Below, one piece after another: positions 4,549 to 25,881 of a stretch of 32,000 nucleotides of DNA. The notes under the pieces were generated by a model. The model made no database searches. It saw only the letters and a program-made list of their open reading frames with translations, and was not told the DNA's origin. Numbering within the stretch: the stretch's first letter is position 1; each line of letters begins with the position of its first letter. This DNA is from Ignicoccus islandicus DSM 13165 (GTDB taxonomy: Archaea > Thermoproteota > Thermoprotei_A > Sulfolobales > Ignicoccaceae): contig NZ_CP006867.1 in the NCBI RefSeq assembly GCF_001481685.1, forward strand, positions 1,020,001 through 1,052,000, given 5' to 3'. Made by a program: the position numbers and the translations under genes.

Positions 4549-5013
4549 GAACTACGCTTTATCTCGTTTCATTTCATCTCGCACTTCGTTTTCCTCAAGC
4601 GTTACCTCAAACCTCTTTATCGTTAGAACTTTCGCGCCTTTACTCCTCAACTCTACTCTCTAATTTTAGAAATGGTTTTGCTGTGATGAACGGAAGCGCC
4701 TATCTATAAGCGTTCCTTGTTCCTAATTGGATCTTTAAAAGCCGTACTTAGGAAGAGAACGCACGTGAATTTGGTAAGAGAGTTACCCCTTCTCACTGGT
4801 CGTATGGTCGGTTGACGCAATGCTACGTAGCCACCACTAAGTGTTATCTATGTAGTCGTAGTTATTAAGACAATGTCGCGAAGTATTGTTAACTTCAGAG
4901 GCGATGCCGAAGTTCTACTATACATCTAACAACTTCGGTACACCTTAAACGATACTTAAAAGCAGTCAATTAACCTCGGTCAGCGAAAGAACCTATTGTA
5001 ATGGCAGTCCTAC

Positions 5014-5055
5014 CGTGACTTCGAAGCACTGGATCGAGGACTCCGAAGGCTCGGG
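5014..5055 (-). repeat. degenerate tRNA 3'-half-like fragment A (att-like scar)
   Basis: Contains ctccgaaggc, the reverse complement of the GCCTTCGGAG anticodon arm of the tRNA-Arg at 9557-9633. It sits in the same position relative to the conserved leader as fragments B-D. It is the most decayed copy. Confidence 0.4.
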
Positions 5056-5210
5056 ACATAAAAACTGTGTTCCCGGGGAAAATCATGAATTGGAAACGGT
5101 CTTCGCAAATTCTCATCACCGCGGATATCAATGCGGATAATCTGGAAACACCGGCTTCTAGGGGAAAGACTAATTGTCCCGATGCACTTAATGTATGAGT
5201 GGGGCTAGAA
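5056..5210 (+). promoter_or_regulatory. conserved cassette leader, copy A (TATA-like box, GGAAAC motifs, vapB promoter)
   Basis: Alignable by eye with 6064-6225, 7029-7190 and 8631-8777. Shared blocks are ataaaa, a GTTCCC..GGAAA inverted repeat, catgaattggaaac, cttcgcaaat, tctggaaac and ctaattgtcccgatgcac, followed by taatgtatgagtgggg about 20 nt before the TTG start. Confidence 0.55.
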
Positions 5211-5432
5211 TTGTCCAAGGTTATAAGAGTAAGATACGAGGGTGGCGTTCTGAAGCCGCTTGAACCTCTAGGGTTTAGTGAGGGCGAGGAACTTATCGTG
5301 GAAGTGAAGAGGCAAGTAGCTGGGAAAGGTATAGAACAGTTCTTTGGAGTGGTTAAGACTAAGAAAAGGAGGACTCTCATCGGGGAGGAGGATTACTATG
5401 AACACGTCTCAGAGAGGGGTGGTGTTCCTTGA
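5199..5432 (+). CDS. AF2212-like (DUF104) antitoxin, VapB-type, cassette 1
   Basis: SKVIRVRYEGGVLKPLEPLGFSEGEELIVEV matches the AF2212/DUF104 pattern (xYENGVLKPLEPVxLxEGxxV). By comparison with cassette 2, the true start is probably the TTG at 5211. The 3' end overlaps the PIN gene. Confidence 0.8.
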   Translation: MGLELSKVIRVRYEGGVLKPLEPLGFSEGEELIVEVKRQVAGKGIEQFFGVVKTKKRRTLIGEEDYYEHVSERGGVP

Positions 5433-5868
5433 TAGTAGCATTATCATTCGCTACTTCCTAGGAGATAGCAAGGCCAAAGAGGTTCTAGAAGATGACTCTA
5501 AATTCGCTATAAACTCTATAGTTTATAGCGAGGTAGCTTTTAACCTCTTAAAACTTCTATACGTAGATAAATATAGTAGATACCAGTTTTATGACATGAA
5601 GTCGGCAATATCTAGCCGCGATAGTGACCTCCTAAGAGGATACAGGATACTCTACTCGTTCATAGACGAGCTTCTAGGCGAGGAGAGGCTAGTATTCCTC
5701 CCAATAACTTTAGAGGTAATAGAAGAGGCAACTAGGATAGCCACAGAATACGGCTTACTACCAAACGACTCACTCATAGCAGCAACATGTAAGCATTATG
5801 AAATAAACGCCATAGCCACTTTCGATGAGGACTTCAGGCGAATCCCATGGCTAAAAGTAATTCCATAA
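5398..5868 (+). CDS. PIN-domain ribonuclease toxin (VapC-type), cassette 1
   Basis: The ATG at 5398 gives MNTSQRGVVFLDSSIII (first PIN acidic residue). The C-terminus reads PNDSLIAATCKHYEINAIATFDEDFRRIPWLKVIP and is shared with cassettes 3 and 4. Confidence 0.85.
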   Translation: MNTSQRGVVFLDSSIIIRYFLGDSKAKEVLEDDSKFAINSIVYSEVAFNLLKLLYVDKYSRYQFYDMKSAISSRDSDLLRGYRILYSFIDELLGEERLVFLPITLEVIEEATRIATEYGLLPNDSLIAATCKHYEINAIATFDEDFRRIPWLKVIP

Positions 5869-6017
5869 CTCATCGATGGATTACCAAATAGGATAATCCT
5901 CTAAGAAGCATGAACCAACCTAGATTCCTGCCATGATTTAGAGTTGCAGCACAGCTTCTCAGAAAGAAGATTCTTATTCATGTAGTATTTGGTTTATATG
6001 TGTAGTACTTATGTAAC

Positions 6018-6063
6018 GGGACAGCCGGGATTTGAACCCGGGACCACGGGCTCCGAAGGCCGG
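6018..6063 (-). repeat. tRNA 3'-half-like fragment B (att-like scar)
   Basis: 6030-6061 is identical over 32 nt to 9573-9604 inside tRNA-Arg (anticodon arm 3' part, variable loop, T stem 5' strand and T loop). It then continues with a canonical T-stem 3' strand CCCGG but a non-matching acceptor strand CTGTCCC. Confidence 0.8.
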
Positions 6064-6225
6064 AGATATATAAGCAGCGTTTCCAATGGAAACCATTGAA
6101 TGGAAGCAAACTTCACAATCAGTTATCGTTAGATGATGTCATAGGTGATAACGTGGAAACAGGTTGTAGGGCTGAGGTAAATGGCTAATTGTCCCCGATG
6201 CACTAGTATAAGTGGGAGCTAGATA
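6064..6225 (+). promoter_or_regulatory. conserved cassette leader, copy B
   Basis: Contains atatataag, gtttccaatggaaac (6079-6093), cattgaatggaagc, cttcacaat, an inverted repeat GTTATC/GATAAC (6122-6127 / 6147-6152), gtggaaac, ctaattgtccccgatgcac and tagtataagtggg. Confidence 0.55.
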
Positions 6226-6429
6226 TTGTCTAAAGTCGTAAGGGTAAGATATGAGAAGGGAGTACTCAAGCCGCTGGATAGGATTGAGTTTCGGGAGGGA
6301 GAGGAGTTACGGGTTGTGATACTTCCTAGGGAGTTCCCTGAGCTTCTAAGAGAAGTTGAGGTAGAGGCTAAGGAAGACATCGATAAAGTGCTCAGGGAGG
6401 CCCGTGAGAGATGGAGACAGTGGTATTAG
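6226..6429 (+). CDS. AF2212-like (DUF104) antitoxin, cassette 2
   Basis: TTG start. MSKVVRVRYEKGVLKPLDRIEFREGEELRVVI matches the family pattern. Confidence 0.8.
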   Translation: MSKVVRVRYEKGVLKPLDRIEFREGEELRVVILPREFPELLREVEVEAKEDIDKVLREARERWRQWY

Positions 6430-6888
6430 ATAGCAGCGTCATCGTTAAGGCTATCGTAAAGCCTGGGCACTGGCTTCCAATCGAGGTGTATCGTAGAGAA
6501 GCTGAGACGCATAAGAAAGCCAGAAAAGTAATTGAACTCCTAAAACAAAGAAATCGCACGGTCGTTTTCCCATTTCCCGTTCTAGTCGAAGTTGCCGCTG
6601 TGATATCTAGGCTTGTAAGTAGAGAGTTGGCTGAGAACAATTGAATCACTCCGTACCACTACGAACTACATAGTCGTTGACGAGAAAGATATACGAGAGG
6701 AAGCAATCAAGGTTGCCATCGAAACAGGTAGCTCGGGCTTTGACGCATATGTTTTGGCGACTGCGTTAAAGTATAATGCTGTACTTATAACAGACGATGA
6801 GCCAATGAGCATACATGCCAAGAAAGAAAAACTGGAATACATCCTTCTACGGAGTGTATCATTAAGTGAGCTCGAGGATTTAATCTAG
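6411..6888 (+). pseudogene. PIN-domain toxin gene, frameshifted, different PIN subfamily from cassettes 1, 3 and 4
   Basis: The N-terminal part METVVLDSSVIVKAI... stops at 6644. The +1 frame continues as ...NYIVVDEKDIREEAIKVAIETGSSGFDAYVLATALKYNAVLITDDEPM... to the TAG at 6886-6888, which is a typical PIN C-terminal half. Confidence 0.7.
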
Positions 6889-6981
6889 AATTTCTTGTTA
6901 TACCTTGAGAACATTTACAGGCTCATTCGAATACTTAACTCTTAGTCTTAGAATTTTTTGAAAACAAGATGAACACGTATG

Positions 6982-7028
6982 TGGCACCCGCCGGGATTTG
7001 GAACCGGGACTACGGGCTTCATAGGCTT
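6982..7028 (-). repeat. tRNA 3'-half-like fragment C (att-like scar)
   Basis: The reverse complement reads AAGCCTATGAAGCCCGTAGTCCCGGTTCCAAATCCCGGCGGGTGCCA. This is a diverged copy of the tRNA-Arg 3' portion. Its terminal CGGGTGCC resembles the expected acceptor strand CGGGGCC with one extra base. Confidence 0.65.
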
Positions 7029-7190
7029 GGGGCTTATAAACCATGTTTCCAAGAGAAACCATGAATTAGAAACGCCCTTCACAAATGGTTACCGCTAGAG
7101 GTATCAGAGCGAATAATCTGGAAACACGCTGTAGGGTTGGGGTAAAGCGCTAATTGCCCTGATGCACCTAATGTATAAGTGGGGCTAGAA
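7029..7190 (+). promoter_or_regulatory. conserved cassette leader, copy C
   Basis: Contains cttataaacc, gtttccaagagaaac (7045-7059), catgaattagaaac, cttcacaaat, an inverted repeat CGCT/AGCG (7093-7096 / 7108-7111), tctggaaac (7117-7125), ctaattgccctgatgcac and taatgtataagtgggg. Confidence 0.55.
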
Positions 7191-7391
7191 TTGTCCAAGG
7201 TTATAAGAGTAAGATACGAGAAGGGCGTGCTAAAGCCTCTAGAGCCAGTAGAACTTAGAGAAGGTGAAGAGATAGTCGTCTTTATACGTAAGCGTAGGGT
7301 TGGCGAGGTTCTTAAGAAGTATGCTGGAATGTTTGGTAGGGCTGACATAGAGGAGCTAAGGAAGTACGAGGAGGAGGCCCAGGCACAGTGA
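7179..7391 (+). CDS. AF2212-like (DUF104) antitoxin, cassette 3
   Basis: SKVIRVRYEKGVLKPLEPVELREGEEIVVFI matches the family pattern. The likely true start is the TTG at 7191. The stop overlaps the PIN GTG start (GTGA). Confidence 0.85.
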   Translation: MGLELSKVIRVRYEKGVLKPLEPVELREGEEIVVFIRKRRVGEVLKKYAGMFGRADIEELRKYEEEAQAQ

Positions 7392-7840
7392 GCAAGGTGT
7401 TCATTGACACCAATATATTTTACAACATATTATTTGAGACCGGTCTCACTCAGATAGCTCGAAAGTTACTAGAAGATTATGAAGAAAACATGTTCTACAC
7501 AAGTATAACTGTGGTGAACGAGCTACTCTACATATCCACAAGAAAGCACTACCAAACCACTGGAGAGATTAGCGGACCTTATAGCCTAAGAAGGCTAATA
7601 GCGAGCAAAGGGTATCCCAAGCTTATCGTCGACGGTATACGTAAACTATTAAGAGACCTTGAAGTGGAAGTACTAATAGAAACCGTAGGTTATCAGGATA
7701 TGATAGAAACAGCGAGTAGCCTAAATCTCCTGCCGAGCGACACCATCATAGCACTGACATGCAGACACTACGGCATTGATACTATCCTAACCTTTGACGA
7801 GGACTTCAAGCGTGTTCCATGGCTCAAGGTTATTCCCTAA
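7388..7840 (+). CDS. PIN-domain ribonuclease toxin (VapC-type), cassette 3
   Basis: MSKVFIDTNIF... at the N-terminus and LPSDTIIALTCRHYGIDTILTFDEDFKRVPWLKVIP at the C-terminus. There is a 4-nt overlap with the antitoxin gene. Confidence 0.9.
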   Translation: MSKVFIDTNIFYNILFETGLTQIARKLLEDYEENMFYTSITVVNELLYISTRKHYQTTGEISGPYSLRRLIASKGYPKLIVDGIRKLLRDLEVEVLIETVGYQDMIETASSLNLLPSDTIIALTCRHYGIDTILTFDEDFKRVPWLKVIP

Positions 7841-7868
7841 ATATGAGCCAGACCTACTCTGATTCAAT

Positions 7869-8078
7869 GTGCGTTGTTTGGTGAAACCCAGCTCTTTCAA
7901 GCTTAAGTTCTTGTACTATATGAGTTCTCTACTAATGTTATTTCTCTCAATACTTGTTTTAATAGCCCCTATAGGCGCTGTAGTTTCAATGGCTAGCAAT
8001 GAAAAGGTTTACCCGGTTATTCCAATAGTGTTTGTAAGTCTATTTATATTCTCCATGTTAGGGTTTTATGCGAGTTGA
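7869..8078 (+). CDS. possible small two-helix membrane protein
   Basis: The ORF has two hydrophobic stretches (LLMLFLSILVLIAPIGAVV and VIPIVFVSLFIFSMLGF). It lies in an AT-rich spacer between cassettes 3 and 4. An internal ATG at 7920 is a possible alternative start. Confidence 0.3.
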   Translation: MRCLVKPSSFKLKFLYYMSSLLMLFLSILVLIAPIGAVVSMASNEKVYPVIPIVFVSLFIFSMLGFYAS

Positions 8079-8587
8079 TTCCCCTTACTTAGAAGGTTAC
8101 ACAGCCATACTATTGTGGTGACAAGGTGGTACGACCCCACAATACCTAGAGAATATAGGACTCAAAATGAGGCGCGTGTCATGGTTCTTCGAAAGGAGCA
8201 GATATTATGAAGCAACAATTAGTGGCAAAACATTAATAACAATCTCTGTAAATCTGCACATACCTAGAATATTTAGGGAAAAGGAGAATTACCTACGGTA
8301 AAAGTAGCCATTTACTTAATACCAAAGGATATGGGCGAAGCAGAGAAAACCCGGCTCGAGAAGGCTATACAAAAAGCTATGGATAAGAATAAGCCTATCA
8401 TCCATTGATGAGCCATAGACGTTGTTTCGTGTAGAGAATACGCAACTTGCTCATCGTTAACTAGCGGAGACACGTTATCGCATTGCATGGGTTTATCCTT
8501 TGACAACCTTGTAGTCTCATTATATCTAGACTAAGACGGAAAAGTAGCACGAAAGAACGCACATAGAAATAAGTACTTTTGAGTAGC

Positions 8588-8630
8588 AGGACCACCGGGA
8601 TTTGAACCCGACCCCGACTCACCAGTGCCC
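8588..8630 (-). repeat. tRNA 3'-half-like fragment D (att-like scar)
   Basis: The reverse complement reads GGGCACTGGTGAGTCGGGGTCGGGTTCAAATCCCGGTGGTCCT. A T arm (CGGG TTCAAAT CCCG) plus acceptor-like tail is present. It occupies the same position relative to the leader as fragments A-C. Confidence 0.6.
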
Positions 8631-8777
8631 TATAAACAAGGTTTCCCGAAGAAACCATTGCCTGGAAACATCCTTCACAAACGATTATCGAGTAATGCTA
8701 TCAAGATAGTCTGGAAACGTTTTATTCTGCGAAGGGTATATTGGGGTTTGACTCTATAAGTGTATTTGGGGTTGAAT
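8631..8777 (+). promoter_or_regulatory. conserved cassette leader, copy D
   Basis: Contains ctataaacaagg, gtttcccgaagaaac, cattgcctggaaac, cttcacaaac, an inverted repeat ATTATC/GATAGT (8684-8689 / 8705-8710), ctggaaac and ctataagtgtatttgggg. Confidence 0.5.
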
Positions 8778-8990
8778 TTGTCTTCCAAGGTTAGGGTTGT
8801 GCGTGCACGATATGAGAATGGAGTGCTAAAGCCTCTAGAGCCAGTAGAGCTTAAGGATGGAGAGGAGGTTCTGGTTAGGGTGGAAAGGCTCGAGAGTAGG
8901 GAGAATATTGTAGAGAAGTTCTATGGAAGACGCGGTCCAGCCCCGAAAGAGCTACTGGACGAGTTTATGCTTGAGGCTGAGGCTCAGTGA
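8760..8990 (+). CDS. AF2212-like (DUF104) antitoxin, cassette 4
   Basis: SSKVRVVRARYENGVLKPLEPVELKDGEEVLVRV matches the family pattern. The likely start is the TTG at 8778. The stop overlaps the PIN GTG start (GTGA). Confidence 0.85.
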   Translation: MYLGLNLSSKVRVVRARYENGVLKPLEPVELKDGEEVLVRVERLESRENIVEKFYGRRGPAPKELLDEFMLEAEAQ

Positions 8991-9436
8991 TACTGCTGGA
9001 CACTAATGCTATAGTATACTACTTACACCGCGTTGAGCCATACGCGTCGAGAGTGAAGCGGATCCTAGCAAGTAGGGAGGACTTAGCTTTAACTCTCAGG
9101 ATAGTTGACGAGGTAATCTTTACCCTTATAAGGCTTGAGGCTTTGAGGAAGCTCGAAATAAGGAGACTGGACCAGCTACGGGATTACATTAGGAAGCATG
9201 GCCTAGAAGAGTTCGATGACGCTATAAACGATGCTGATGAGATGATAAATAGCCTCGGAATTCTGGTCCTAGAAGACAAAGGTAGTCTTAGAGAACTCCT
9301 GGAGGTAATGAGGAAATATAGCCTACTCCCAGGAGATGCCTTGATTGCAGTAACCGCTAAGCATTATGGTATAGATACTATTCTAACGTTCGACGAAGAC
9401 TTCAAGCGAGTTCCGTGGCTCAAGGTAATCCCTTAG
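8987..9436 (+). CDS. PIN-domain ribonuclease toxin (VapC-type), cassette 4
   Basis: MILLDTNAIVYY... at the N-terminus and LPGDALIAVTAKHYGIDTILTFDEDFKRVPWLKVIP at the C-terminus. Confidence 0.9.
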   Translation: MILLDTNAIVYYLHRVEPYASRVKRILASREDLALTLRIVDEVIFTLIRLEALRKLEIRRLDQLRDYIRKHGLEEFDDAINDADEMINSLGILVLEDKGSLRELLEVMRKYSLLPGDALIAVTAKHYGIDTILTFDEDFKRVPWLKVIP

Positions 9437-9556
9437 CATACTAGGATTACCAACTACGATATCCTTGGTGAAGGAGGAGCAATCATAGTTTTAGCATACT
9501 GAATTGTAACTTCACTCTTTGCAAGGAGAAATTTTATAATAGTGATGGTATATAGG

Positions 9557-9633
9557 TGGCGAGCCCATCGAAATTTGAACCCGGGACCACGGGCTCCGAA
9601 GGCCCGCGCTCCTCCTGGCTGAGCTACGGGGCC
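9557..9633 (-). tRNA. tRNA-Arg (anticodon UCG) with aberrant T-stem and acceptor 3' strands; encoded CCA; possibly chimeric or a pseudogene
   Basis: The minus strand folds by hand as GGCCCCG TA GCTC AGCCAGGAG GAGC G CGGGC CTTCGGA GCCCG TGGTC CCGGG TTCAAAT TTCGA TGGGCTC G CCA. D and anticodon arms are perfect. The T stem has one mismatch and two G-U pairs, including G53-U61. The acceptor stem has one C-C mismatch and two G-U pairs. A TTTAAAT box lies about 27 nt upstream. Confidence 0.65.
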
Positions 9634-9819: not shown

Positions 9820-10431
9820 CTTTCTATTCCCTATTGGGATTCTACTGGTCTATCTAGTTGAGAAGGATTTCATAAACGATATTCAGACTTTCTATTCCCT
9901 ATTGGGACTCTACTCATCACGTCAAATGGTTTCGGAAAGCGTAGTGCTACTTTCTATTCCCTATTGGGACTCTACATTACAACAACTAGCGGGGGTCTTC
10001 AGTTCTGGATGTCTTTCTATTCCCTATTGGGACTCTACCGAACTTGACGTGGTCTCGAAGGCCGTAGAAGAAGTGACTTTCTATTCCCTATTGGGACTCT
10101 ACGGATCGAAGCGAAGGTCGTCGGTCATCCGAGCTTTGCGATCTTTCTATTCCCTATTGGGACTCTACAGAATCTAGTGTTGATCGAAGTGAAGAGATCG
10201 GGAAGGGGACTTTCTATTCCCTATTGGGACTCTACATTGACAGGTACGTTAGGTGCGGGAGGTATCGATGTTTGAATCTTTCTATTCCCTATTGGGACTC
10301 TACCCTGAGGCGCCCCCTCCCGTCAGGGAGGGGGATATAAAAACTTTCTATTCCCTATTGGGACTCTACATAAAAGCACTAGAAGAAGCGAGTGAGTTAG
10401 AGCTACTTTCTATTCCCTATTGGGACTCTAC
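9820..10431 (-). CRISPR. CRISPR array: 10 repeats of 26 nt and 9 spacers of 36-42 nt, with one further degenerate repeat at 9760-9780
   Basis: The plus-strand repeat is CTTTCTATTCCCTATTGGGACTCTAC, starting at 9820, 9888, 9950, 10013, 10077, 10143, 10210, 10278, 10344 and 10406. The reverse complement GTAGAGTCCCAATAGGGAATAGAAAG ends in GAAAG like crenarchaeal repeats, so transcription is inferred on the minus strand. Repeat 9820 carries a C>T change. A 5-nt-deleted repeat lies 39 nt further left, consistent with a trailer end on the left. Confidence 0.95.
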
Positions 10432-17581: not shown

Positions 17582-18148
17582 ATGAAGGCTCTCGTAACTG
17601 CGTTACTGCTCTCAGCTCTAGTTTCCGCTTACATAGTAGGGGCACCGGAGCCCCATTGCTCTACCTGCCACACTCCAGCGAACCCGGTTAAGTTCGAGGT
17701 CAAGGGATTACCTAAGTACTACGTTCCGGGAAAGGAATATAACGTAACTATAGCTATAACGGAGAAATGCGAAGGGAAGTGCTGCGAAGGCTTCTACTTC
17801 TCTATACCAGCGGGAGATGTTAAGGTGAGCGATCCGAAGGCGATGAAGGTAGAGAGACCTCCCTTTGGAACCCCCTATCTGACTCACACTGAAGAGGGTA
17901 GGTTCAGAACTTCTTGGAGCTTCAAGTGGATAGCGCCTAAGGAGAGGATACCTCTAACCTTTACCGTTTCAGTACTCAAGGCAAACTGCGATAACGAGCC
18001 TACCGGAGACAACTTTTCTATAAAAGAGATAAAGGTATACCCGGAAGGGTACGTGCCTCCTAAGAGCTCTAACAGGTTGCCTTACTTGATAATAGGCGTT
18101 GCATCGATAGCCATTGCGACTCTGTTGCTAATACTCGCTATAGCGTAA
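17582..18148 (+). CDS. membrane-anchored secreted protein with a single CXXCH heme c motif
   Basis: It has a signal-peptide-like N-terminus (MKALVTALLLSALVSAYIVGA), then CSTCH at residues 26-30 (nt 17657-17671), and a C-terminal hydrophobic anchor (LPYLIIGVASIAIATLLLILAIA). Confidence 0.7.
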   Translation: MKALVTALLLSALVSAYIVGAPEPHCSTCHTPANPVKFEVKGLPKYYVPGKEYNVTIAITEKCEGKCCEGFYFSIPAGDVKVSDPKAMKVERPPFGTPYLTHTEEGRFRTSWSFKWIAPKERIPLTFTVSVLKANCDNEPTGDNFSIKEIKVYPEGYVPPKSSNRLPYLIIGVASIAIATLLLILAIA

Positions 18149-18184
18149 GGGCTTTTAGTTAGTTCAGCGAGGCTTTTTCTAGAA

Positions 18185-19204
18185 ATGCGCGTAAAATTGC
18201 TAGCTCTCATAGTAATTGCCCTCGCAATTTCCTCCCGCTCGCTACCGGTAATAGAACTGCACCAAGCGTATTACCAACTAGGCGAGCTAAGTCACGCAAC
18301 CGTAGTTGTTAGATCTGATTCGAATGAGGATTACCATGTAAGGGTTAAGTTAATTGGCGCGAAGCTGGAAAGCGGCGGAAACTCAATTGAATTCGCGAGG
18401 AAGGTTAAGTCGGGAGAGGCCATAAGGATCGATTTGAACTTCGTACCGAGGGAACCGGTAACTCGAATTAGATTGGAAGTGAACTCCGTTAAGGCCGAAG
18501 GCCTCTTGGGAAAGGTCCCCGTCCCAGGAGCGCTAGCCGAATACGAGATAAGAGAAAAGGTCATATCTATAGGGCTCTGGAACCCCCTTAGTAAGGCCGT
18601 TCGCTTCGTGGTTTCCTTCAATGCCGCCAATCCAGTTAAGGAGGTAGTTGAGAAGAAGTGCATCGAGAGGGGAACGGCGTACTCCACCTATTACTATTGC
18701 TTGAAGAAGACGTGTGCCGTGCCGTTCTACGGCAATTTGAACTGTACCAAGTGGGAGACCGTAGAGGAAGTGAACTACAGCTGCATTGAGTGGAGAGATG
18801 GGGGTTGCACCAAGTACTTGGTCGTCCCGATACGCCTCAATAAGTGCGTTGAAATGGTGGCCGGACCGGGATGTCTCTTATGGACGTGCGCGAAGTGGAA
18901 GGTAGAAAGGGAACCAGTGGAGTTCTGCAAGGTCGAAGTAACGGAGGTGAGGAAGCTCTGGCCTTCCTACGCTTTGTGGAGCGGGGAAGTGGAAGGTTTT
19001 GCGGAACTAAAGGTTCCATTCGAGTACAAGGAGGGGTCCCTCGAAGCTGGAGGAAACGAGGTCACGCTGTTCAGTGTTTACGCAGATGGAGAATTGGTCT
19101 TAGAGGCTAGGGAGAGCGCGTTCCCCGATATAATTCCTTTTATAGAGACGCTCATCCTGTACGCATTTTCCTTCTATTTCCTTTGGAGGAGTACCCACGG
19201 GTGA
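18185..19204 (+). CDS. secreted Cys-rich protein with a C-terminal membrane anchor (paralog of 19211-20386)
   Basis: It has an N-terminal signal-like segment, a central block with about 14 Cys (..YYYCLKKTCAVPFYGNLNCTKW...CIEWRDGGCTKY...CLLWTCAKWKVEREPVEFC) and a C-terminal hydrophobic helix. Confidence 0.7.
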   Translation: MRVKLLALIVIALAISSRSLPVIELHQAYYQLGELSHATVVVRSDSNEDYHVRVKLIGAKLESGGNSIEFARKVKSGEAIRIDLNFVPREPVTRIRLEVNSVKAEGLLGKVPVPGALAEYEIREKVISIGLWNPLSKAVRFVVSFNAANPVKEVVEKKCIERGTAYSTYYYCLKKTCAVPFYGNLNCTKWETVEEVNYSCIEWRDGGCTKYLVVPIRLNKCVEMVAGPGCLLWTCAKWKVEREPVEFCKVEVTEVRKLWPSYALWSGEVEGFAELKVPFEYKEGSLEAGGNEVTLFSVYADGELVLEARESAFPDIIPFIETLILYAFSFYFLWRSTHG

Positions 19205-19210
19205 TAGGGT

Positions 19211-20386
19211 TTGAGGGCCTTGCTTCTCATCGCTGCATCGCTAATACTAGCGTTCGCTTGCGTGGACGTTACCGTTTACCCGCTGAGCCAGTTCAAGCCC
19301 TTCGAAACGTCCACAGCGGTCTTTCGACTCCACTCCGAATGCCAAGCCGAGGTAAAGCTAATTGCGAAAATTTCCAATGCGACTGTTAGCGGAGCCAAGG
19401 GATTCGATTCAGTTGTTTCCAACTTGCTTATCTTGGAAAGGGAGCTCAAGAAGGGCGACCTAACCGCCTTCGCCACGCTCGTTCCTACCTCCGACAGAGT
19501 CAGCGTCCATATTTCTCTTTATATAAATGGAAGGCTTTCCAAGGACGAGGTAACGTACTTGGGAACGCCGCCTTGCGTCAGGGTCTACGCCTCCTCGCTG
19601 AATTTGAGGGATGCGTTAAAGGGCTTCGAAGTACCGGAGAACGCTAAGGCGCTCGATGTGCTTGTAATTAATCAGTGCGATGAACGTGTCTCGAGCTTGC
19701 TAAGCGTTAGGTTCCCGTTGGGCAAGGCGATGCTTTTCGCTCCCTACTACAAATGCGACGAATACGAGACCATAGCGTACACTGTTAAGGAATGCGCCAA
19801 AGACGAGTTAGGAACGCCGATTACAATTTGCGTAAAGAGCTCCAATACCGGACCCTTCAAGACCATTTACGTGAAGAAGAGCGCCCAACCGGTAGTGAGG
19901 AAGTGCACGGATTGCGTTCCAGTAGAGACGGCGAACGGAACTAATTACGTTTGTTCGAAATGCGAAACGTATGTTAGGGAACCAGAAGTTCTGGAGGAGA
20001 TATCCGTTAGGGAGCCTAGATGCTTCGAGACGAGGTGCGCGAAATGGAACGAAATAGCTAGGACCCTAAGGGTTTGTAGGGAGTGGAGCGGTAAGGCGAT
20101 TCGATCGAACGTTGAAGTAATAGGCAACTACTTCTCCTTGGAAGTTCACTTAGATAGAGGGGAAGCTAAGGAGTACCTCATACCCTTCGTCCTCACTCAG
20201 AGGTATTACGTAATAGGTTCCTTCTCGAGGGCAGTTGAAGTTCCAGTAGCGGTAATTGAGTACGGAGGAAGCGAGGTTAGGGTGAACGAAGCAATACCTA
20301 ACTACGGATACGTCTTCACAGTATTACTAACGGTCCTCTCCCTTCTCTCAATTTCGTATTTCTTGATGAAAGTAGTGGGAGGATAG
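19211..20386 (+). CDS. secreted Cys-rich protein with a C-terminal membrane anchor (paralog of 18185-19204)
   Basis: The TTG start lies 7 nt after the upstream stop. It has a signal-like N-terminus, a Cys-rich block (YYKCDEYE...CTDCVPVE...YVCSKCETY...RCFETRCAKWNEIARTLRVC) that shares the xCAKW...C pattern with the upstream gene, and a C-terminal hydrophobic helix. Confidence 0.7.
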   Translation: MRALLLIAASLILAFACVDVTVYPLSQFKPFETSTAVFRLHSECQAEVKLIAKISNATVSGAKGFDSVVSNLLILERELKKGDLTAFATLVPTSDRVSVHISLYINGRLSKDEVTYLGTPPCVRVYASSLNLRDALKGFEVPENAKALDVLVINQCDERVSSLLSVRFPLGKAMLFAPYYKCDEYETIAYTVKECAKDELGTPITICVKSSNTGPFKTIYVKKSAQPVVRKCTDCVPVETANGTNYVCSKCETYVREPEVLEEISVREPRCFETRCAKWNEIARTLRVCREWSGKAIRSNVEVIGNYFSLEVHLDRGEAKEYLIPFVLTQRYYVIGSFSRAVEVPVAVIEYGGSEVRVNEAIPNYGYVFTVLLTVLSLLSISYFLMKVVGG

Positions 20387-20411
20387 GAGCCCAGAGACCC
20401 CGTAGGGGGTG

Positions 20412-20558
20412 TGGTGGGCCCGGGGGGATTTGAACCCCCGACCTACGGGTCTCTCCTCCCGGGTCTTAACGCTCCAGACGACGATCATCGCCTTTCGGCT
20501 CTACCAGACCCGTAGTACGTCTGGAGCCCGCCGCTCTGCCTGGCTGAGCTACGGGCCC
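20412..20558 (-). tRNA. tRNA-Trp (anticodon CCA) with a 70-nt intron at the canonical 37/38 position; encoded CCA
   Basis: The minus strand reads GGGCCCG TA GCTC AGCCAGGCA GAGC G GCGGG CTCCAG [70-nt intron] A CCCGT AGGTC GGGGG TTCAAAT CCCCC CGGGCCC A CCA. The intron contains CGTCTGGAG, which is complementary to the exon sequence CTCCAGACG, as expected for a bulge-helix-bulge splice substrate. Confidence 0.8.
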
Positions 20559-20885
20559 ACCATATCTCATCCGTTGGTCCGATATCTAACGCTCGTAAAC
20601 CAGTTTATAAGTGTTTATATCAACGCACCTTCGTTAAGTTCATTTCCAAGCATCGAAATACCGTTACCGATGCTAATGCGTTTCGGTGATGGTACTATAT
20701 TTACGGAGTGCGTGCTATATCGTTATTATAAGAACTTTCTCGAGGTAGGTCTGAGAGTATTATCCAAACTGCATATGGTTATTTAGTTACGGCTGGTACC
20801 GTAGGGTGCTTATGCAATTAATATATCCCCGTTCGCTACGCCAATTTGGTTACAAGCTTAGAGAACGCTAGACGGGGCGGGAAAT

Positions 20886-21446
20886 ATGATAGGGTTATTA
20901 AAAGGTTTTATTCTGCAGCTCTCTAGTATGCCAATATCTAGCATGCCAATAACTACTAACCGAAATAAGGGATCAGGGAGGAAAGCCATATTAGTGCGTT
21001 TCAACGACCGTGCATTAAAGAAGTCTATTTTTAGGTACCAACTATGGAGAATCATTTCGCTAACATACGTTAATGGCCCCATGCCTATAGAGGGCTCGAA
21101 CGCGCTAAATCAAGGATTCATTGGAGTTCCGTTAAGAGGACCACCTCGAGACAAGTTCTTTCTCTATATTCTAGTACGTGAGAGCATCGTGGGAAGGAAG
21201 CTATCGAGGAAGTACGAGAAGTTTCTCGAAAAGGAGATCTCGAGAATTGTTGAAGAAATTTTCGAGAATAGAGACGAAATAGATGCGAAAGACTTCATCG
21301 AGAAATTCTTCTCAAACATTGAGGAGAGACTAAATATGAGATTAGAGAACAAGGAGATTCTGTACGACTTCTTTACTACTGGTCGAACAGTTAAGCGACG
21401 AGGTGGTGAGGCAATAGAACTAATATATAATGACCTTGCTTCGTAA
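20886..21446 (+). CDS. hypothetical protein; the real start is probably the internal ATG at 21081
   Basis: The C-terminal two thirds is a charged, helical-looking sequence (KYEKFLEKEISRIVEEIFENRDEIDAKDFIEKFF...). The first 65 codons cover a 15-bp tandem DNA repeat and look non-coding. Confidence 0.4.
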   Translation: MIGLLKGFILQLSSMPISSMPITTNRNKGSGRKAILVRFNDRALKKSIFRYQLWRIISLTYVNGPMPIEGSNALNQGFIGVPLRGPPRDKFFLYILVRESIVGRKLSRKYEKFLEKEISRIVEEIFENRDEIDAKDFIEKFFSNIEERLNMRLENKEILYDFFTTGRTVKRRGGEAIELIYNDLAS

Positions 21447-21655
21447 ATCACTATGTAATGTTTTTAATAAGGACACGTTGTCAGTAACGAGTATTTTTCT
21501 AATGCCTCTCGGAGCCCTTCCATGGTTTATCTATACGAGCAATCTTAACTACTTCAATTCCACCTTGAATAGCGAAGCGTAGTTACCGTTTATATGGAAA
21601 GTAAATTGGGGTAACTCTTAGATATCGCGATTCCTCGCACAACTCCTCGAAACAG

Positions 21656-23710
21656 TTACTTGAACGCATCAATTAAAAAGAGAATGTCTTTAATGGCGGT
21701 TTCCATCACTTCTTCAACGTTACGAGATGACCTTTGATAATCGAATATCTTTGCAAGCCACCATGAAAGGTACCTCCTCTTGATGTCCTCATCTAAATGT
21801 TCTAATCCGCTCCCTAGTCCCCAAGATCTCACGTGAGCATCTACTATTTCGCGCAACCTCAAGGATCTACCAGTTTCCCCTTCACTGAGTTTAATCAAAA
21901 CTTCCCTATCCATCATCTTATCGAAGACCTTCTCGAAACTTTCGATTAGTTTGAACCAAGCCGTTAGCCAAATCGGACCATTTGTAACGAGTTCTTTAAT
22001 CTTAGGTGGAACTTCTCGCTCCAGAAATTCCAGCACTTCGTTGAGCAAGCTCTCTTCTACTTCCACTTCCGCGTTATCCAGACGGCATGCGACTTTCTCT
22101 TCACACGCTCTGTAGAGGTCGCAATATCGAACGTCGCAGAAGGCCAAGCGGTGGCGAAGCGCGACCAATCTATGTGCTCTGTTTTTATTCCCTATAACGC
22201 ATCTATATCTTCCCTTGAAAGCTGCCACAGATTCTCCTAAAAGATCTCCTAGAACTGGAGAAATAGCGATTCTGACGACATCGGTCGATTCGCTTATCGA
22301 CTGAATGTCGCCTTTTAATTCTTCAATTAAATTGCTATACGAAAGCTTACCGAATTCGAAGCTAGGAATCTCGATAACTAAATCAACGTATAACCTACTA
22401 CCATGGAGTTCCGCACAATTACACCTAGCTCTCTTGATCCCTTCATCTATGTTACAAGGGTACGCAACGATACGATTTATCCTAATAGGTAAGACCCTTC
22501 GAGCGCATTGATGTGTAATACCCACTAGCGTTTCTAATGCATTTAAAAGTCCATTGGCTTCAACGGATTCGAGGCAAGCCATTAAATGGGCTTTAGGTTT
22601 ATCCAGCGGTAGCTTTATGCTATTAACTCGAATGTAGCAATCTAATCCTCGCGAAAGGGCTTCGCAAAGCGTCCCCGGAGGTATGTGACGAAAGACGTCC
22701 TCTGGTTGCGGAAGCACTGGTCTCTTTCTTTCCGTTAAAGTGAACATTTCCATGGCGATTCTCGCTTTCTCTTGGTCGCTAGCTTCCTTACTTTCCTTTA
22801 CAATCTTCAGAATGAACTTGTACCTCCTTTTAATGCAAGGTCTAACCCGCAGGCACGGCGTCAGACTGAAGTACTTGACGCTATAGTCACATCGGCTAAC
22901 ATCGAAGCCTCTCCGGAACCTATCGGGCAACGTTCTAAGCAATTTTTCCAATGGATCGACGTTCCCTATGTTCTCTTCTAATACTTCGCTTGCCTCGCGT
23001 ACTAGGTGGTTTACTAAAGAAAGTAGCGTACATACGTCGTTTGGTATGCACGCTTCTATGCGGAGTTTGTTCCATACAACTCCGTAGGCGCCCTTAATTA
23101 TTCTCGATTTGCTACAATCCGTTGGCAAATAAGTAGTCATTTCGTATATAGCGCTCTGTATCCCGGCAGTCAATGGCTTAATACTTTTTTCGATATAGGG
23201 AAATTTCTGATGACAATTTGAATGCTCTCTTAAGCTCATAACTTTCAAGTCAACCCTCTTGCGAATTACTTCGTCGTTACCGTACTTCTTATTCAATCTA
23301 CTCAAGAAGTTGCAGTGCAAGTTTTGATTCTCATAGAATAGTACTATGACCACCAGCTCGACTCTGTTATTACTTTCGTTTAGTAGCTCTTTTGCTGTTT
23401 TCAGCATTTCATCTACTGCTGCAGTTGGGTGCCTAACCGAGGAATCGGAGTAGGTGACTTTGATGGTGTATGGAGAGGTCGTTGTGAACGGTATCTTCAT
23501 GCATTTCTTACTGCCACAGGTTTCGAACCACTCTTCGCCGAAGTCGTTCCTAGGCGCGTAGAGATGTACGTTTTCAACTAGCTCGCCTTGAGGCTTCGTT
23601 TCAACTAAGTAATGGCTTACGAGCAACGCGTTAAGTACTTTTAAGGCTCTATTGAGGTCGTCGGTGAATATGTATAATAGTTTACGTCTACCTTCTCTCA
23701 CTCCTCCCAC
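21656..23710 (-). CDS. large Cys-rich soluble protein of unknown function (684 aa)
   Basis: An uninterrupted 2-kb ORF in an AT-richer island. There are no hydrophobic segments and no Walker A, HD, GGDD or nuclease motif visible by eye. About 30 Cys include the clusters CGSKKC and FCDVRYCDLYRACEEKVAC. The start overlaps the upstream gene by 13 nt. Confidence 0.75.
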   Translation of the reverse strand: MGGVREGRRKLLYIFTDDLNRALKVLNALLVSHYLVETKPQGELVENVHLYAPRNDFGEEWFETCGSKKCMKIPFTTTSPYTIKVTYSDSSVRHPTAAVDEMLKTAKELLNESNNRVELVVIVLFYENQNLHCNFLSRLNKKYGNDEVIRKRVDLKVMSLREHSNCHQKFPYIEKSIKPLTAGIQSAIYEMTTYLPTDCSKSRIIKGAYGVVWNKLRIEACIPNDVCTLLSLVNHLVREASEVLEENIGNVDPLEKLLRTLPDRFRRGFDVSRCDYSVKYFSLTPCLRVRPCIKRRYKFILKIVKESKEASDQEKARIAMEMFTLTERKRPVLPQPEDVFRHIPPGTLCEALSRGLDCYIRVNSIKLPLDKPKAHLMACLESVEANGLLNALETLVGITHQCARRVLPIRINRIVAYPCNIDEGIKRARCNCAELHGSRLYVDLVIEIPSFEFGKLSYSNLIEELKGDIQSISESTDVVRIAISPVLGDLLGESVAAFKGRYRCVIGNKNRAHRLVALRHRLAFCDVRYCDLYRACEEKVACRLDNAEVEVEESLLNEVLEFLEREVPPKIKELVTNGPIWLTAWFKLIESFEKVFDKMMDREVLIKLSEGETGRSLRLREIVDAHVRSWGLGSGLEHLDEDIKRRYLSWWLAKIFDYQRSSRNVEEVMETAIKDILFLIDAFK

Positions 23711-25881
23711 TCCTCATCCCAATCTGAATAGAAGTCAGCTAAAGCACCGATCGAGTGGGCCAATCTGTGTTCGAAGTTCGAGTAGACTATGCAATCTGAA
23801 CCCCCCTCGGGGCTTGTTGCCTCATAATACTTGTTAGGAACCCTTTCAAGCGTCCTCGAGATCCCAACCAGTTTACACGTCCTTACTGAGCCTTCCTTAG
23901 ATGGCTCGCCTCTCCGGACGTATATACCGAAAGCGTGTTGGGTTCCCTCCTCGCTCATCAGCACTTCGGTTATTCTCGAAATATTACTGCTTATCTCTAA
24001 GTTATCCTCTCCCGAGGGTACCATTATGAAATACACTGATTCCGGAGGGTTCATTGCGTACAAGAGGAACCTATCGGTAGCGTCGCCTTGTAGGCTAAGT
24101 ACGAGCGATGGTGTTCTTAGTTCTATCGATTTTCCATACTTTTGTACTGGTATGAAATAGAATTTGTCTCTCAATATCAGCGCTGATTCCAGTGATGGCG
24201 AGAGCACAAGGGTATCCTTTGGGTCGATAACTGTCAGACAGTATTTCATGTCCCTCTTCAACCCTTCCTCTGTACACCACAAGTGCTTCTGAGGATCTCT
24301 GTCAACGATTGTTATAGACGTAACCACTGGATAATCCGAAATAGAACATAGATAGCCTTCTCTACTTCCGTTCTCCTCCAGTTCCACGCTTTCATTGGAG
24401 GGAACGTTTATTTCAGAGCTTCCAGAAGTAGCTTCCAAACGTTCGCTGTGAACTGGAGGTCGCTTAACCCCATAGAAATAATCTGGCATTACCTCGAGGA
24501 ACTTACCGAAGGCTTGTTCTATTAAGATCACGTGGGTTAATACTCTAGAGAAGACTCCGAATCCTAAAATGATTATTCTATTTGACCTTAGAAGGTGATG
24601 GAACCTGAGTGTTCTTCCAAATACGTTATCTAATTTCACGCAAGGCATGGATTCAGCATGAAACAACCTTCTCATAAGGTCGAGACTTGAAGCGACCAGT
24701 GACGACACAGAGAATATCTTTATGGGAAAGATGTAATCGATTACGTCCGAACTGCTTCGAGTCTCGTCAAGCGCAAGTGGATATATTACTAGGAAGAGGA
24801 GCGATACAAGTAGGGGTAGGAACATCCAAAGGTACTTCAAGATGCAATCGGGCGATTTCGTAAAGTACTTCCATTTAAACGGACATTCTAACATCAGCGG
24901 TATTGAATATGGCCATATAAAGTAATCTCTCCCATCTGAGTGCAACTTCGAAGATGGATTCGAAGCGAAGTAGAAGAGCTCCAAGGCGTATATTACGTTG
25001 AAGTAAAATAGGGTGAAAAGGGAGATTTGAGGGATCATGTTCTCTAGGAACGTTATCAGATCTCCCTGCGGTTCTGCTGCGTTCGCAGAGATAAGCCCAA
25101 GGGCCAACGTAATAACCCATGCCACCGCGTACTCTAATATAACTTCATTGCTTCCCTGAGCCCTCGGGAATAGATGCGTAAAGTAGATTAGATTAAAGGC
25201 CACAACTACGGCTTCAAGAACTGTTACGCAAAGCTGGTATAGGTACCGGTATAAATATGGTACGTGCTCGGAGTGGACGACATCATGCCACGTAAGTGTA
25301 GGCATTATAACTACGATCATGAAGAGAAAGAGACCGAGCCTAGAGTAGGGAGGATACTTATGAACGTATTTATCTAGTACTTTTAACGAAAACTCAGGCT
25401 TGCCCATATGTACTAGAAGAAGTGTTAAAACTAGAGGTGTTAGAAAAAACAGTAAGCACGTAAGTGGGGTCGATAGAAGTGAGAGCAGATGTGAGAGCAA
25501 CTGAATAGTTATATCCAATATTATAATCAGCATGGGATTGACAAGTTCGCTGAGGATAAGCTCGATCGAATTTATAAGTAGCGTTCTCAACGAGTCTGAC
25601 AATACCACGAGGACGTAAAAGATGGTAGATAAGGTAAAGGCGACCATCCTCAAGAAAATGGACTTTCTGCGCAATAGCAGTTTTAAGGAGGCAAAAAGTA
25701 ATAGTGAGATAAATGTTGTAATCAAGAAGGAACTACTGTAACTTGGAAGGTTCGAATTGCGATAACTTAGTAATTGCGAAAAGTATAAGTTAGCCACCAA
25801 TAACGCGGCAACGAGTTGCGCAAGCAATACTGCTAGATAAGCAATAGTCTCTATGTCGGCCCTGTCCTCCGCTTTACTCAA
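23698..25881 (-). CDS. polytopic membrane protein with a KTN/RCK-like cytoplasmic C-terminal domain (727 aa), unknown function
   Basis: Residues about 12-400 contain roughly 10 hydrophobic helices. The C-terminal part shows the ordered motifs RIIILGFGVFS (435-445), ITIVDRDP (523-530), LQGDATD (597-603) and GEDNLEISSNISR (624-636), ending in an acidic tail DWDEEWEE. Confidence 0.75.
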   Translation of the reverse strand: MSKAEDRADIETIAYLAVLLAQLVAALLVANLYFSQLLSYRNSNLPSYSSSFLITTFISLLLFASLKLLLRRKSIFLRMVAFTLSTIFYVLVVLSDSLRTLLINSIELILSELVNPMLIIILDITIQLLSHLLSLLSTPLTCLLFFLTPLVLTLLLVHMGKPEFSLKVLDKYVHKYPPYSRLGLFLFMIVVIMPTLTWHDVVHSEHVPYLYRYLYQLCVTVLEAVVVAFNLIYFTHLFPRAQGSNEVILEYAVAWVITLALGLISANAAEPQGDLITFLENMIPQISLFTLFYFNVIYALELFYFASNPSSKLHSDGRDYFIWPYSIPLMLECPFKWKYFTKSPDCILKYLWMFLPLLVSLLFLVIYPLALDETRSSSDVIDYIFPIKIFSVSSLVASSLDLMRRLFHAESMPCVKLDNVFGRTLRFHHLLRSNRIIILGFGVFSRVLTHVILIEQAFGKFLEVMPDYFYGVKRPPVHSERLEATSGSSEINVPSNESVELEENGSREGYLCSISDYPVVTSITIVDRDPQKHLWCTEEGLKRDMKYCLTVIDPKDTLVLSPSLESALILRDKFYFIPVQKYGKSIELRTPSLVLSLQGDATDRFLLYAMNPPESVYFIMVPSGEDNLEISSNISRITEVLMSEEGTQHAFGIYVRRGEPSKEGSVRTCKLVGISRTLERVPNKYYEATSPEGGSDCIVYSNFEHRLAHSIGALADFYSDWDEEWEE

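Follow-up and report, generated by a model that had tools for sequence, protein, structure and literature searches.

Putative integrase-less toxin-antitoxin cassettes stacked at a tRNA-Arg gene of Ignicoccus islandicus and at tRNA-Arg genes of related vent archaea

Site-specific integration targeted to tRNA genes, with tandem stacking of the integrated elements, is known. The attachment (att) sites used by archaeal integrases are typically 40-50 bp long, and both tandem integration and loss of the integrase are documented (PMC8371274, PMC6563490); pAH1, for one, integrates reversibly into tRNA-Arg[TCG] (PMC3119797). Toxin-antitoxin (TA) pairs are among the most horizontally mobile prokaryotic genes, and the COG2880-PIN pair is a predicted TA system whose clustered paralogues were noted in Archaeoglobus fulgidus (PMC2701414). 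Here we describe a locus of the archaeon Ignicoccus islandicus DSM 13165, within a 32,000-nucleotide stretch (NZ_CP006867.1, positions 1,020,001-1,052,000; hereafter the window, numbered from its first letter), in which four pairs of this kind, AF2212-like antitoxin and PIN toxin, each follow a copy of the 3' half of tRNA-Arg and are lined up beside a tRNA-Arg gene. We judge, with a little better than even confidence, that the locus consists of four miniature (~1 kb), non-autonomous integrative cassettes, which were captured one after another at tRNA-Arg by an unlinked tyrosine recombinase and are stabilised by their TA pairs.

The array in the window and its relatives

The window array (5002-9633) comprises four plus-strand units, A to D, which are bounded by tRNA-derived direct repeats. 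Each consists of an antisense copy of the tRNA-Arg 3' half, a TATA-like box followed by a conserved leader of ~170 nt, an AF2212-like antitoxin gene, a PIN toxin gene and a tail (Table 1). A profile built from att and leader copies of other genomes recovers all four units (4996-5217, 6006-6232, 6977-7197 and 8577-8782; E 7e-40 to 9e-51) together with the 3' half of the tRNA itself (9549-9608), and has no further match in the whole 32 kb; a 20-nt T-arm probe, with up to three mismatches allowed, matches these sites only, where none is expected by chance. In Pfam searches the AF2212-like open reading frames (ORFs) of all four units match PF01954 (E 1e-14 to 3e-22) and the PIN ORFs of units A, C and D match PF01850 (E 4e-16 to 2e-21), unit B being the exception, with its PIN frame broken into two ORFs. 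The TA pairs are intact in units A, C and D, and the PIN gene of unit B is a pseudogene. The antitoxin gene lies directly upstream of the PIN gene and overlaps it (by 4 nt in C and D), and the acidic active-site positions D..E..D..D are present in the A, C and D toxins, as read by eye in the translations (FIDTN, VNELL, PSDTI and FDEDF in unit C). Unit C appears to have lost its tail, the position of which is occupied by ~750 bp of unrelated DNA (7841-8583). Identity of att to the family consensus is 69% in A, 91% in B, 77% in C and 76% in D (with indels), and 85% in the tRNA.

An earlier note, made from the window sequence alone, had described this shared architecture next to the minus-strand tRNA-Arg, and the results with ARAGORN, Pfam and the profile from other genomes bear it out. 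The tRNA-like fragments that it listed are real, but their starts had been set 4-12 nt too far to the right; the correct starts, at about 5002, 6018, 6982 and 8584, coincide with the complement of the CCA end of the tRNA. The 32-nt identity that it reported between fragment B and the tRNA (6030-6061 and 9573-9604) is exact and maximal, and the tail homology that it noticed after 5868 and 9436 is real (5878-5895 versus 9444-9461, 89%) and belongs to a tail motif found family-wide.

The units have many relatives. When the leader motif GTTTCC-N4-GAAACCAT-N6-GAARC was searched for in a set of genomes with one representative of each species, 24 archaeal loci were obtained, in metagenome-assembled genomes of Desulfurococcales, Acidilobaceae and Pyrodictiaceae and in named candidate taxa from hydrothermal vents, along with about nine bacterial chance matches. 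A metagenome scan gave 44 more, and the family stands at ~70 loci (referred to by L numbers) in vent genomes, metagenomes and the cultured Aeropyrum camini. In nearly all archaeal loci an antisense tRNA-Arg 3' half precedes the leader motif and an AF2212-like gene and then a PIN gene follow it, and unit boundaries are uniform throughout. The arrays, at tRNA-Arg(TCG/CCG), hold from one cassette (L003, L021, L023, L034, L037, L041, L042) or two (L036) to three or more (L025, L026, L016, L019) and up to at least five; in the 13-kb locus L061, at least five forward and at least four reverse units flank one tRNA-Arg(TCG) in opposite orientation, with at least nine att copies. Contigs that reach the array end show a genuine tRNA-Arg(TCG), scoring 61-70 bits, or a tRNA-Arg(CCG) (L081). 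The A. camini array (complete genome AP012489) likewise adjoins tRNA-Arg(CCG), and its cargoes are AF2212-PIN, AF2212 with an unknown 164-aa protein, and DUF5678 with an aspartyl-protease-like protein.

With cassette types defined as PIN clusters at 65% identity, at least ten PIN types can be told apart, and their presence and order vary among loci. The window reads T7-B-T1-T3-tRNA, L036 reads T1-T6-tRNA and five loci (L003, L021, L034, L041 and L042) read T1-tRNA; L025 has T10-T3-T4, L026 T5-T4-B, L005 T5-T6 and L014 T2-(methyltransferase)-T3. The genes beside the tRNA-Arg also differ among genomes (SRP54/CRISPR, TIM/FBPase, AFOR, membrane proteins), synteny between related genomes (L003 versus L041; L034 versus L036) breaks exactly at the outer att or the tRNA, and the arrays are located at rearrangement break points.

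The only cassette of L003 is enclosed by an intact tRNA-Arg(TCG) (70 bits) on one side and, 977 bp away, by a copy of the tRNA 3' half that agrees with it at 45 of 46 nt on the other, the layout that integration into a tRNA gene classically leaves. L034 and L036 have a T1 cassette, its tail and the tRNA in common at 94-95% identity, and the extra ~1-kb T6 cassette of L036 is placed exactly between two att copies, which makes this an empty-versus-occupied comparison with its end points in att. The PINs of the window are 32-35% identical to one another (for that of B, the PINs of C and D give no match and that of A one of only 13 residues), but each is ~80-94% identical to a PIN in another genome; the units were therefore acquired serially, and tandem duplication in situ is excluded. 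The earlier note had proposed that the fragments are scars of repeated integration, a reading that it expected to fail if sister genomes carried the same four cassettes, if the fragments were unrelated to any tRNA or if the units had arisen by local tandem duplication, and we examined all three. Related genomes carry one to at least five cassettes of differing types and orders and not the same four, the tRNA origin of the fragments is demonstrable from L003, and the PINs speak as above; none of these results refuted the reading. Its alternative, in which TA cassettes are the mobile unit, survives as well, and the two merge into one.

The non-coding anatomy was drawn from an alignment of 38 att and leader copies, and the motif map from 135 att copies. 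The att site, ~45-48 nt long, spans the anticodon stem through CCA of the tRNA-Arg 3' half and is best conserved in the anticodon stem-loop, GGCTCCGAAGGC. It is followed by a TATAAA box, a GTTTCC-N4-GGAAAC inverted repeat, two more GGAAAC, CTTCACAA and a TTATC..GATATC..GATAA palindrome, and then by AAAGGCTAATTG, a Shine-Dalgarno-like GGGTG element and the TTG start of the antitoxin. The att-proximal ~100 nt of the leader are here called module I and the promoter-proximal part module II. Mean pairwise nucleotide identity across cassettes is 0.78 in the anticodon part of att (0.67 over the whole att) and 0.69 in module I, against 0.49 in module II, 0.51 in the antitoxin gene, 0.45 in the PIN gene and 0.34 in the tail: the backbone of the cassette is more conserved than its cargo. 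The tails carry GATTATC-N6-GATTATC, GTGAAG and a TATA-like box ~20 nt before the next att, and these motifs mirror GATTATC/GATAATC and CTTCAC of module I. In an array att thus has the same motifs on both sides, as it would in a hypothetical excised circle, comparable to the arms of attP. On the evidence concerning an RNA role given below, we provisionally treat the conserved leader motifs as DNA-level sites. A small conserved ORF or an intN/intC remnant running through att on either strand was considered and rejected, since in-frame stops occur in several copies (window B, L014, L035); the read-through peptides MVSxGN... and MAGPPGFEPG... are, as judged from the alignments, by-products of nucleotide conservation.

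The same att also occurs with other cargo. In several loci (L025 5010-6341; L016, L022, L032, L033; L044 10576) it stands beside a second leader type, TGTCCC-N15-CTGGGACA...TTCATACCTATTATCTAGTATATGGGAC, which leads to a UPF0175-like protein (by eye) with an MNT-HEPN pair or to DUF5678 with an aspartyl-protease-like protein; a "tRNA-Arg" called by ARAGORN in L025 is a miscall and actually att with this leader. In L057 (214-2569), L088 (2016-3904) and L091 (3798-6200), att and module I are kept, module II is lost and the TA pair is absent, the cargo being a conserved three-gene set on the opposite strand; one of the encoded proteins has, as judged by eye, a PLD-like HKD motif, and the set may be a small defence system. 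In L078 (1905-2030) a B-type cassette ends in a 10-nt Arg-type att stump, to which a genuine tRNA-Glu(TTC) is joined by its 3' end; clean integration at tRNA-Glu was rejected here, as the junction looks like a rearrangement via shared T-arm sequence.

A proposed mechanism and its rivals

In the mechanism that we propose, a cassette would consist of att, an arm of ~100 nt (module I), a self-promoted AF2212-like/PIN operon and a tail of ~120-150 nt with related motifs. Its att would recombine with the 3' half of a chromosomal tRNA-Arg(TCG/CCG) gene, such that the copy brought by the cassette rebuilds the tRNA 3' half and the earlier 3' half is pushed to the far side, and repeated integration would stack cassettes. 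The TA pairs, presumably active, would penalise deletion between the direct att repeats, and the array would thus be preserved. The recombinase would be a tyrosine integrase provided in trans by a virus, a plasmid or an unlinked chromosomal gene, and by analogy an enzyme of the SSV or pNOB8 kind is plausible; it would act through an excised circular intermediate, with module I and the tail as binding arms. In its broadest form the proposal is that hyperthermophilic Crenarchaeota have an integron-like gene-capture system at tRNA-Arg, in which an unlinked recombinase, possibly one domesticated by the host, would capture, stack, excise and exchange self-promoted ~1-kb cassettes that are defined by the tRNA-derived att and the conserved arm, and this we put forward tentatively, its probability being clearly short of even.

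No linked integrase was found. The ORFs of the window gave no integrase match in Pfam, NCBIfam or PHROGs (no PF00589 or PF16795), as the earlier note had remarked, and no recombinase was found beside the arrays among the ORFs of ~25 genome and 44 metagenome loci (Pfam or by eye). Scans of viral contigs with att and both leader types gave nothing relevant, and apart from the shared att neither viral contigs nor phage records nor plasmids yielded a related autonomous element. The att itself matches fuselloviruses, pSSVi and pAH1 at 79-95% identity (91% over 46 nt in fuselloviruses, 92% over 37 nt in pAH1), and the matching att lies inside the integrase gene in fuselloviruses and pSSVi and beside the integrase gene in pAH1. 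Distant metagenomic homologues of the pAH1-type integrase were set aside: they belong to ordinary elements at other sites, one of them at tRNA-Val, and come without the cassette leader. Beside the tRNA-Arg att of pAH1 itself (L110, 2488-2580) stands GTTTCAGAGGAACGTTGAAAAGAAACG, whose GTTTC..GAAC..GAAAC pattern resembles module I; as a module I homologue this motif was rejected, as it does not align in register, and it is a lead only.

Several points weigh against serial capture by such a recombinase. With no integrase in the window, beside the arrays or in viral contigs bearing att or leader, the key enzyme is hypothetical. SSV-type integrases are not known to require arm sites, and the occurrence of the same att with a second leader type is awkward if the leaders are integrase arms. 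The earlier note was right that fragment A, the copy farthest from the tRNA, is the most decayed (69%), but along the window array att decay does not rise steadily with distance from the tRNA, as would have been expected of scars pushed outward. Between L003 and L041 the T1 cassette is 81% identical and the flanking housekeeping genes are 73% identical, and some cassettes may be old and vertically inherited, with mobility rare. Furthermore, att copies within a locus carry locus-specific variants (L025, L026, window units B and C), which suggests that gene conversion or local processes are at work too.

Some of these points agree with a history in which the arrays go back to one or a few ancient integrations and have since changed only by homologous recombination (unequal crossing-over, gene conversion and uptake of foreign arrays). 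Exchange would then run through the conserved att+leader and tail+att segments, with no site-specific recombination active today. The locus-specific att variants, the exact break of synteny at the outer att and the failure to find an integrase all fit, as does L003, in which the outer att is 98% identical to the tRNA and yet the cassette looks as old as the flanking genes. In L041 (2059-2230) the leader is without the segment between two GGAAAC repeats (model positions ~107-143), which suggests repeat-mediated deletion within leaders, and module exchange by homologous recombination between tandem integrated elements is documented (PMC8371274). However, an initial site-specific event would be needed anyway, the difference between L034 and L036 ends within att on both sides, and an arm of ~100 nt that is more conserved than the genes, and kept with unrelated cargo, is left unexplained. 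Homologous recombination as the only continuing process is the main rival and, in our view, unlikely. We give distinctly less weight to the idea that the units derive from full-size integrated viruses or plasmids, each of which decayed on its own until selection had left only the addiction module. Capture of decaying elements at tRNA genes and loss of their integrases are well documented in archaea (PMC3119797, PMC8371274), and a TA pair is the part most likely to persist; but independent decay of large elements would not produce the same boundaries and ~1-kb size in ~70 loci with at least ten PIN types, att has no intN/intC-like coding remnants beside it, and no other virus or plasmid genes are seen in any unit.

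A different kind of explanation is that the tRNA-antisense segment and the leader are conserved mainly for expression or for an RNA function, with mobility secondary, and we rate it a shade lower still. The segment could serve as operator and promoter for an AbrB-like AF2212 antitoxin, or as a 5' untranslated region that pairs with tRNA-Arg, a possible PIN target. Indeed, TATA-like boxes and palindromes lie at the expected archaeal operator position, the Shine-Dalgarno-like GGGTG precedes the TTG start, and COG2880/AF2212 is a predicted AbrB-like DNA binder (PMC2701414). RNAalifold on the 38 leaders, however, gives only a 5-bp GTTTCC/GGAAAC hairpin with no meaningful covariation; a few double (compensatory) changes keep this hairpin, which leaves room for an RNA or cruciform role. 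At the TTATC...GATAA stem the next position pairs in only ~21 of the 38 sequences (by eye), single-sequence folds are unremarkable on both strands (z -0.9 to -2.4), and T-arm pairing in the aligned fragments is not maintained by compensatory change. Rfam finds no RNA family in the window beyond tRNA models, which match near 20.4 kb at gathering score and, in an E-value search, at the terminal tRNA-Arg (35.9 bits) and fragment B (19.3 bits). Moreover, module I is retained where the cargo is not AF2212 and is encoded on the opposite strand, and the direct repeats flanking each unit are left unexplained. A role of the fragments as working 3' halves of split (trans-spliced) tRNA genes can be regarded as already effectively refuted. 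Split tRNAs do occur among Desulfurococcales, in Aeropyrum, Thermosphaera and Staphylothermus, with mobile elements suggested as their cause, and a TATA box stands just upstream of each fragment in the tRNA sense; yet by the published criteria the fragments do not qualify, as they contain the whole anticodon loop and do not start at a splice position (PMC3218864). Neither a G/C-rich leader that would complement a 5'-half trailer (BHB motif) nor a partner 5' half is seen, the upstream sequence being an A/T-rich box with GGAAAC motifs; the stems have decayed without compensation, and an intact tRNA-Arg stands at the array end in most genomes.

The anchor tRNA and other features of the window

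The array ends at the one tRNA that ARAGORN calls in the window, tRNA-Arg(tcg). With 35.9 bits (Rfam) it scores far below its counterparts in other genomes (61-70 bits), and Rfam misses it at the gathering threshold with fast filters. Its last 16 nt carry five transitions relative to the family consensus, which weaken the T-stem and the acceptor stem through G-U pairs and a C-A mismatch. This is not an assembly error in the window, because assemblies from independent read sets carry the same sequence. A look for strain polymorphism at the locus gave nothing: metagenome contigs with an identical SRP54 end inside cassette A, and the remaining contigs are identical to the window. The gene may be damaged or non-functional in this hyperthermophile, and the array appears to have damaged the tRNA that it uses, the poor 3' end having probably been left by the last integration event or by later decay. 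Compared with the single T1 cassette of L041, the window has unrelated DNA and cassette D between the PIN of unit C and the tRNA. The coordinates of all array features are collected in Table 1.

Table 1. Features of the cassette array in the window, in map order
Feature	Coordinates	Strand	Evidence	Remarks
att fragment A, antisense tRNA-Arg 3'-half copy, most decayed	5002..5057	+	profile E 7e-40; 69% to consensus	
leader module I, unit A	5058..5150	+	leader alignments; motif map over 135 att copies	TATA-like box, degenerate GTTCCC-N4-GAAAAT inverted repeat, GGAAAC repeats, TTATC/GATATC/GATAA palindrome
leader module II, unit A	5151..5210	+	leader alignment	ACTAATTG box, Shine-Dalgarno-like GGGG, then TTG start
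antitoxin A (AF2212-like / COG2880)	5211..5432	+	PF01954, E 5.6e-16	family-conserved TTG start 5211; ORF tool gives GTG 5199
PIN toxin A	5398..5868	+	PF01850, E 2.3e-21; 81% identical to L066 PIN	start codon candidates 5398, 5419 or 5422
tail A	5869..6017	+	repeat family D12; homologous tails in L037, L033, L032, L019	with GGATTACCAAATAGGATAATCC
att fragment B	6018..6063	+	91% to consensus; Rfam tRNA model 19.3 bits	32-nt exact tRNA match
leader unit B	6064..6225	+	leader alignment	module I 6064-6161, module II 6162-6225; perfect GTTTCC-AATG-GAAACCAT at 6079-6096
antitoxin B (AF2212-like)	6226..6429	+	PF01954, E 1.5e-14	
PIN B pseudogene	6411..6888	+	86-88% identical to intact PINs of L107, L049	ORFs 6411-6644 and 6754-6888; intact homologues are 159 aa
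tail B (AT-rich type)	6889..6981	+	compared with tails of B-type cassettes in L016, L026, L008	
att fragment C	6982..7028	+	profile match; 77% to consensus	of the fragments, its acceptor strand best complements the 5' acceptor strand in the window tRNA (direct reading)
leader unit C	7029..7190	+	leader alignment	module I 7029-7125, module II 7126-7190; perfect hairpin motif 7045-7062
antitoxin C (AF2212-like)	7191..7391	+	PF01954, E 2.6e-22; 95% identical to L041 antitoxin	ORF tool gives GTG 7179
PIN toxin C (cassette type T1)	7388..7840	+	PF01850, E 3.6e-16	93% (BLASTP) or 94% (database search) to the PIN of the single-cassette locus L041
unrelated ~750-bp insert in place of unit C tail	7841..8583		L041 homology ends at PIN stop codon	small ORFs only, including a 69-aa hydrophobic ORF 7869-8078; no similar sequence among all fetched loci except same-strain contigs L001, L002
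att fragment D	8584..8630	+	profile match; 76% to consensus	T arm kept, indels in anticodon region
leader unit D	8631..8777	+	leader alignment	module I 8631-8718, module II 8719-8777; perfect hairpin motif 8641-8658
antitoxin D (AF2212-like)	8778..8990	+	PF01954, E 1.2e-18	ORF tool gives GTG 8760
PIN toxin D (cassette type T3)	8987..9436	+	PF01850, E 3e-21; 79-81% identical to L077, L025, L070 PINs	
tail D	9437..9556	+	repeat, tail comparison, motif map	contains GGATTACCAACTACGATATCC; TATA-like box immediately ahead of the tRNA end
tRNA-Arg(TCG), array anchor	9557..9633	-	ARAGORN; Rfam 35.9 bits	degraded 3' T-stem and acceptor strand

Other features lie outside the array. Directly upstream of the tRNA-Arg 5' end is a small CRISPR array (9820-10431, plus strand) with 10 repeats of CTTTCTATTCCCTATTGGGACTCTAC spaced 62-68 bp apart, and no cas genes were recognised within the window. 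At 20415-20558 (minus strand) Rfam finds a tRNA of 54.9 bits, for which ARAGORN makes no call and whose 144-nt span implies a long intron; its 3' part resembles the T arm of tRNA-Arg (L003 BLAST match 20409-20451). Large ORFs of 339, 391, 186, 684 and 727 aa occupy 17582-25881, have no Pfam, NCBIfam or PHROG match, adjoin a choice-of-anchor V domain protein and flank the intron-containing tRNA, and this block may be a surface-protein or foreign island.

Relation to described systems

A full-text literature search found no description of a uniform family of cassettes that are ~1 kb long, lack an integrase, have promoters of their own and combine a tRNA-derived att with a conserved arm, nor of such cassettes in combinatorial tRNA-Arg arrays across an archaeal order. 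How TA pairs move without mobility genes is largely unexplained, and the cassettes offer a defined recombination site and a landing pad that would serve vapBC-like pairs, MNT-HEPN pairs and the three-gene set with the PLD-like motif. Their variable presence in dozens of related archaea suggests a route of gene movement between genomes, and the integron-like capture system, if true, would be a general vehicle for the mobility of TA and small defence modules. At ~1 kb, they would be the smallest site-specific integrative elements so far described from archaea, compared with 2.6 kb, integrase included, for the smallest thaumarchaeal element (PMC6563490). Arrays at synteny break points may also matter for genome rearrangement and tRNA gene integrity, and with a family member in the cultured A. 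camini the model is testable at the bench.

The cassettes share with SSV/pNOB8-type elements (SSV1/SSV2, pSSVi, pAH1) a near-identical 40-50-bp att from a tRNA 3' half and the tRNA-Arg target (PMC3119797, PMC8371274), and those elements too rebuild the tRNA from their own copy and integrate serially at one tRNA gene. In contrast to them, the cassettes are ~1 kb long, lack integrase, replication and structural genes and flanking intN/intC, and form a discrete family with its own arm and tail, in arrays of up to at least five. The published description of the VapBC-like COG2880(AF2212/DUF104)-PIN pair agrees with the cargo in gene order, overlap, sizes and Pfam matches, but is without a tRNA-derived att, a conserved leader or a tRNA anchor. 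Integrative elements that exploit a host recombinase (IMEX), such as CTX-phi at dif, are integrase-less as well and build arrays by re-use of one site (cited in PMC6563490); they employ the host XerCD at dif, whereas the cassettes use a tRNA gene and their recombinase is hypothetical.

Also comparable are the bacterial cis-mobilizable elements (CIMEs) and the site-specific accretion of integrative and conjugative or integrative and mobilizable elements (ICEs, IMEs); here att-flanked, integrase-less elements stand in tandem at a tRNA or another target and are presumed to rely on the integrase that a related element supplies (PMC5704250, PMC6323972). CIMEs, however, belong to bacteria, are as a rule larger and are regarded as having arisen by decay from one particular ICE, and the cassettes are a uniform miniature archaeal family for which no parent element was found. 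With integron arrays, including those that hold TA cassettes, they have in common small cassettes ordered in the same orientation at one site, combinatorial content and stabilisation by TA pairs. Here the differences are that the genes adjacent to the arrays (SRP54, CRISPR, TIM/FBPase, AFOR, membrane proteins) include no recombinase, so that a linked IntI is lacking, as are attI and, at the cassette ends, attC (imperfect inverted repeats folding in single-stranded form); that the site, located at the 5' end of the cassette, is a direct repeat of tRNA origin; and that each cassette has TATA-like boxes and its own start signals, whereas integron cassettes are mostly without promoters. By analogy of function, the arrays appear most like integron cassette arrays or CIME accretion, yet they fail the features that define integrons, and their cassettes would be an archaeal counterpart to integron cassettes or to the CIMEs of bacteria.

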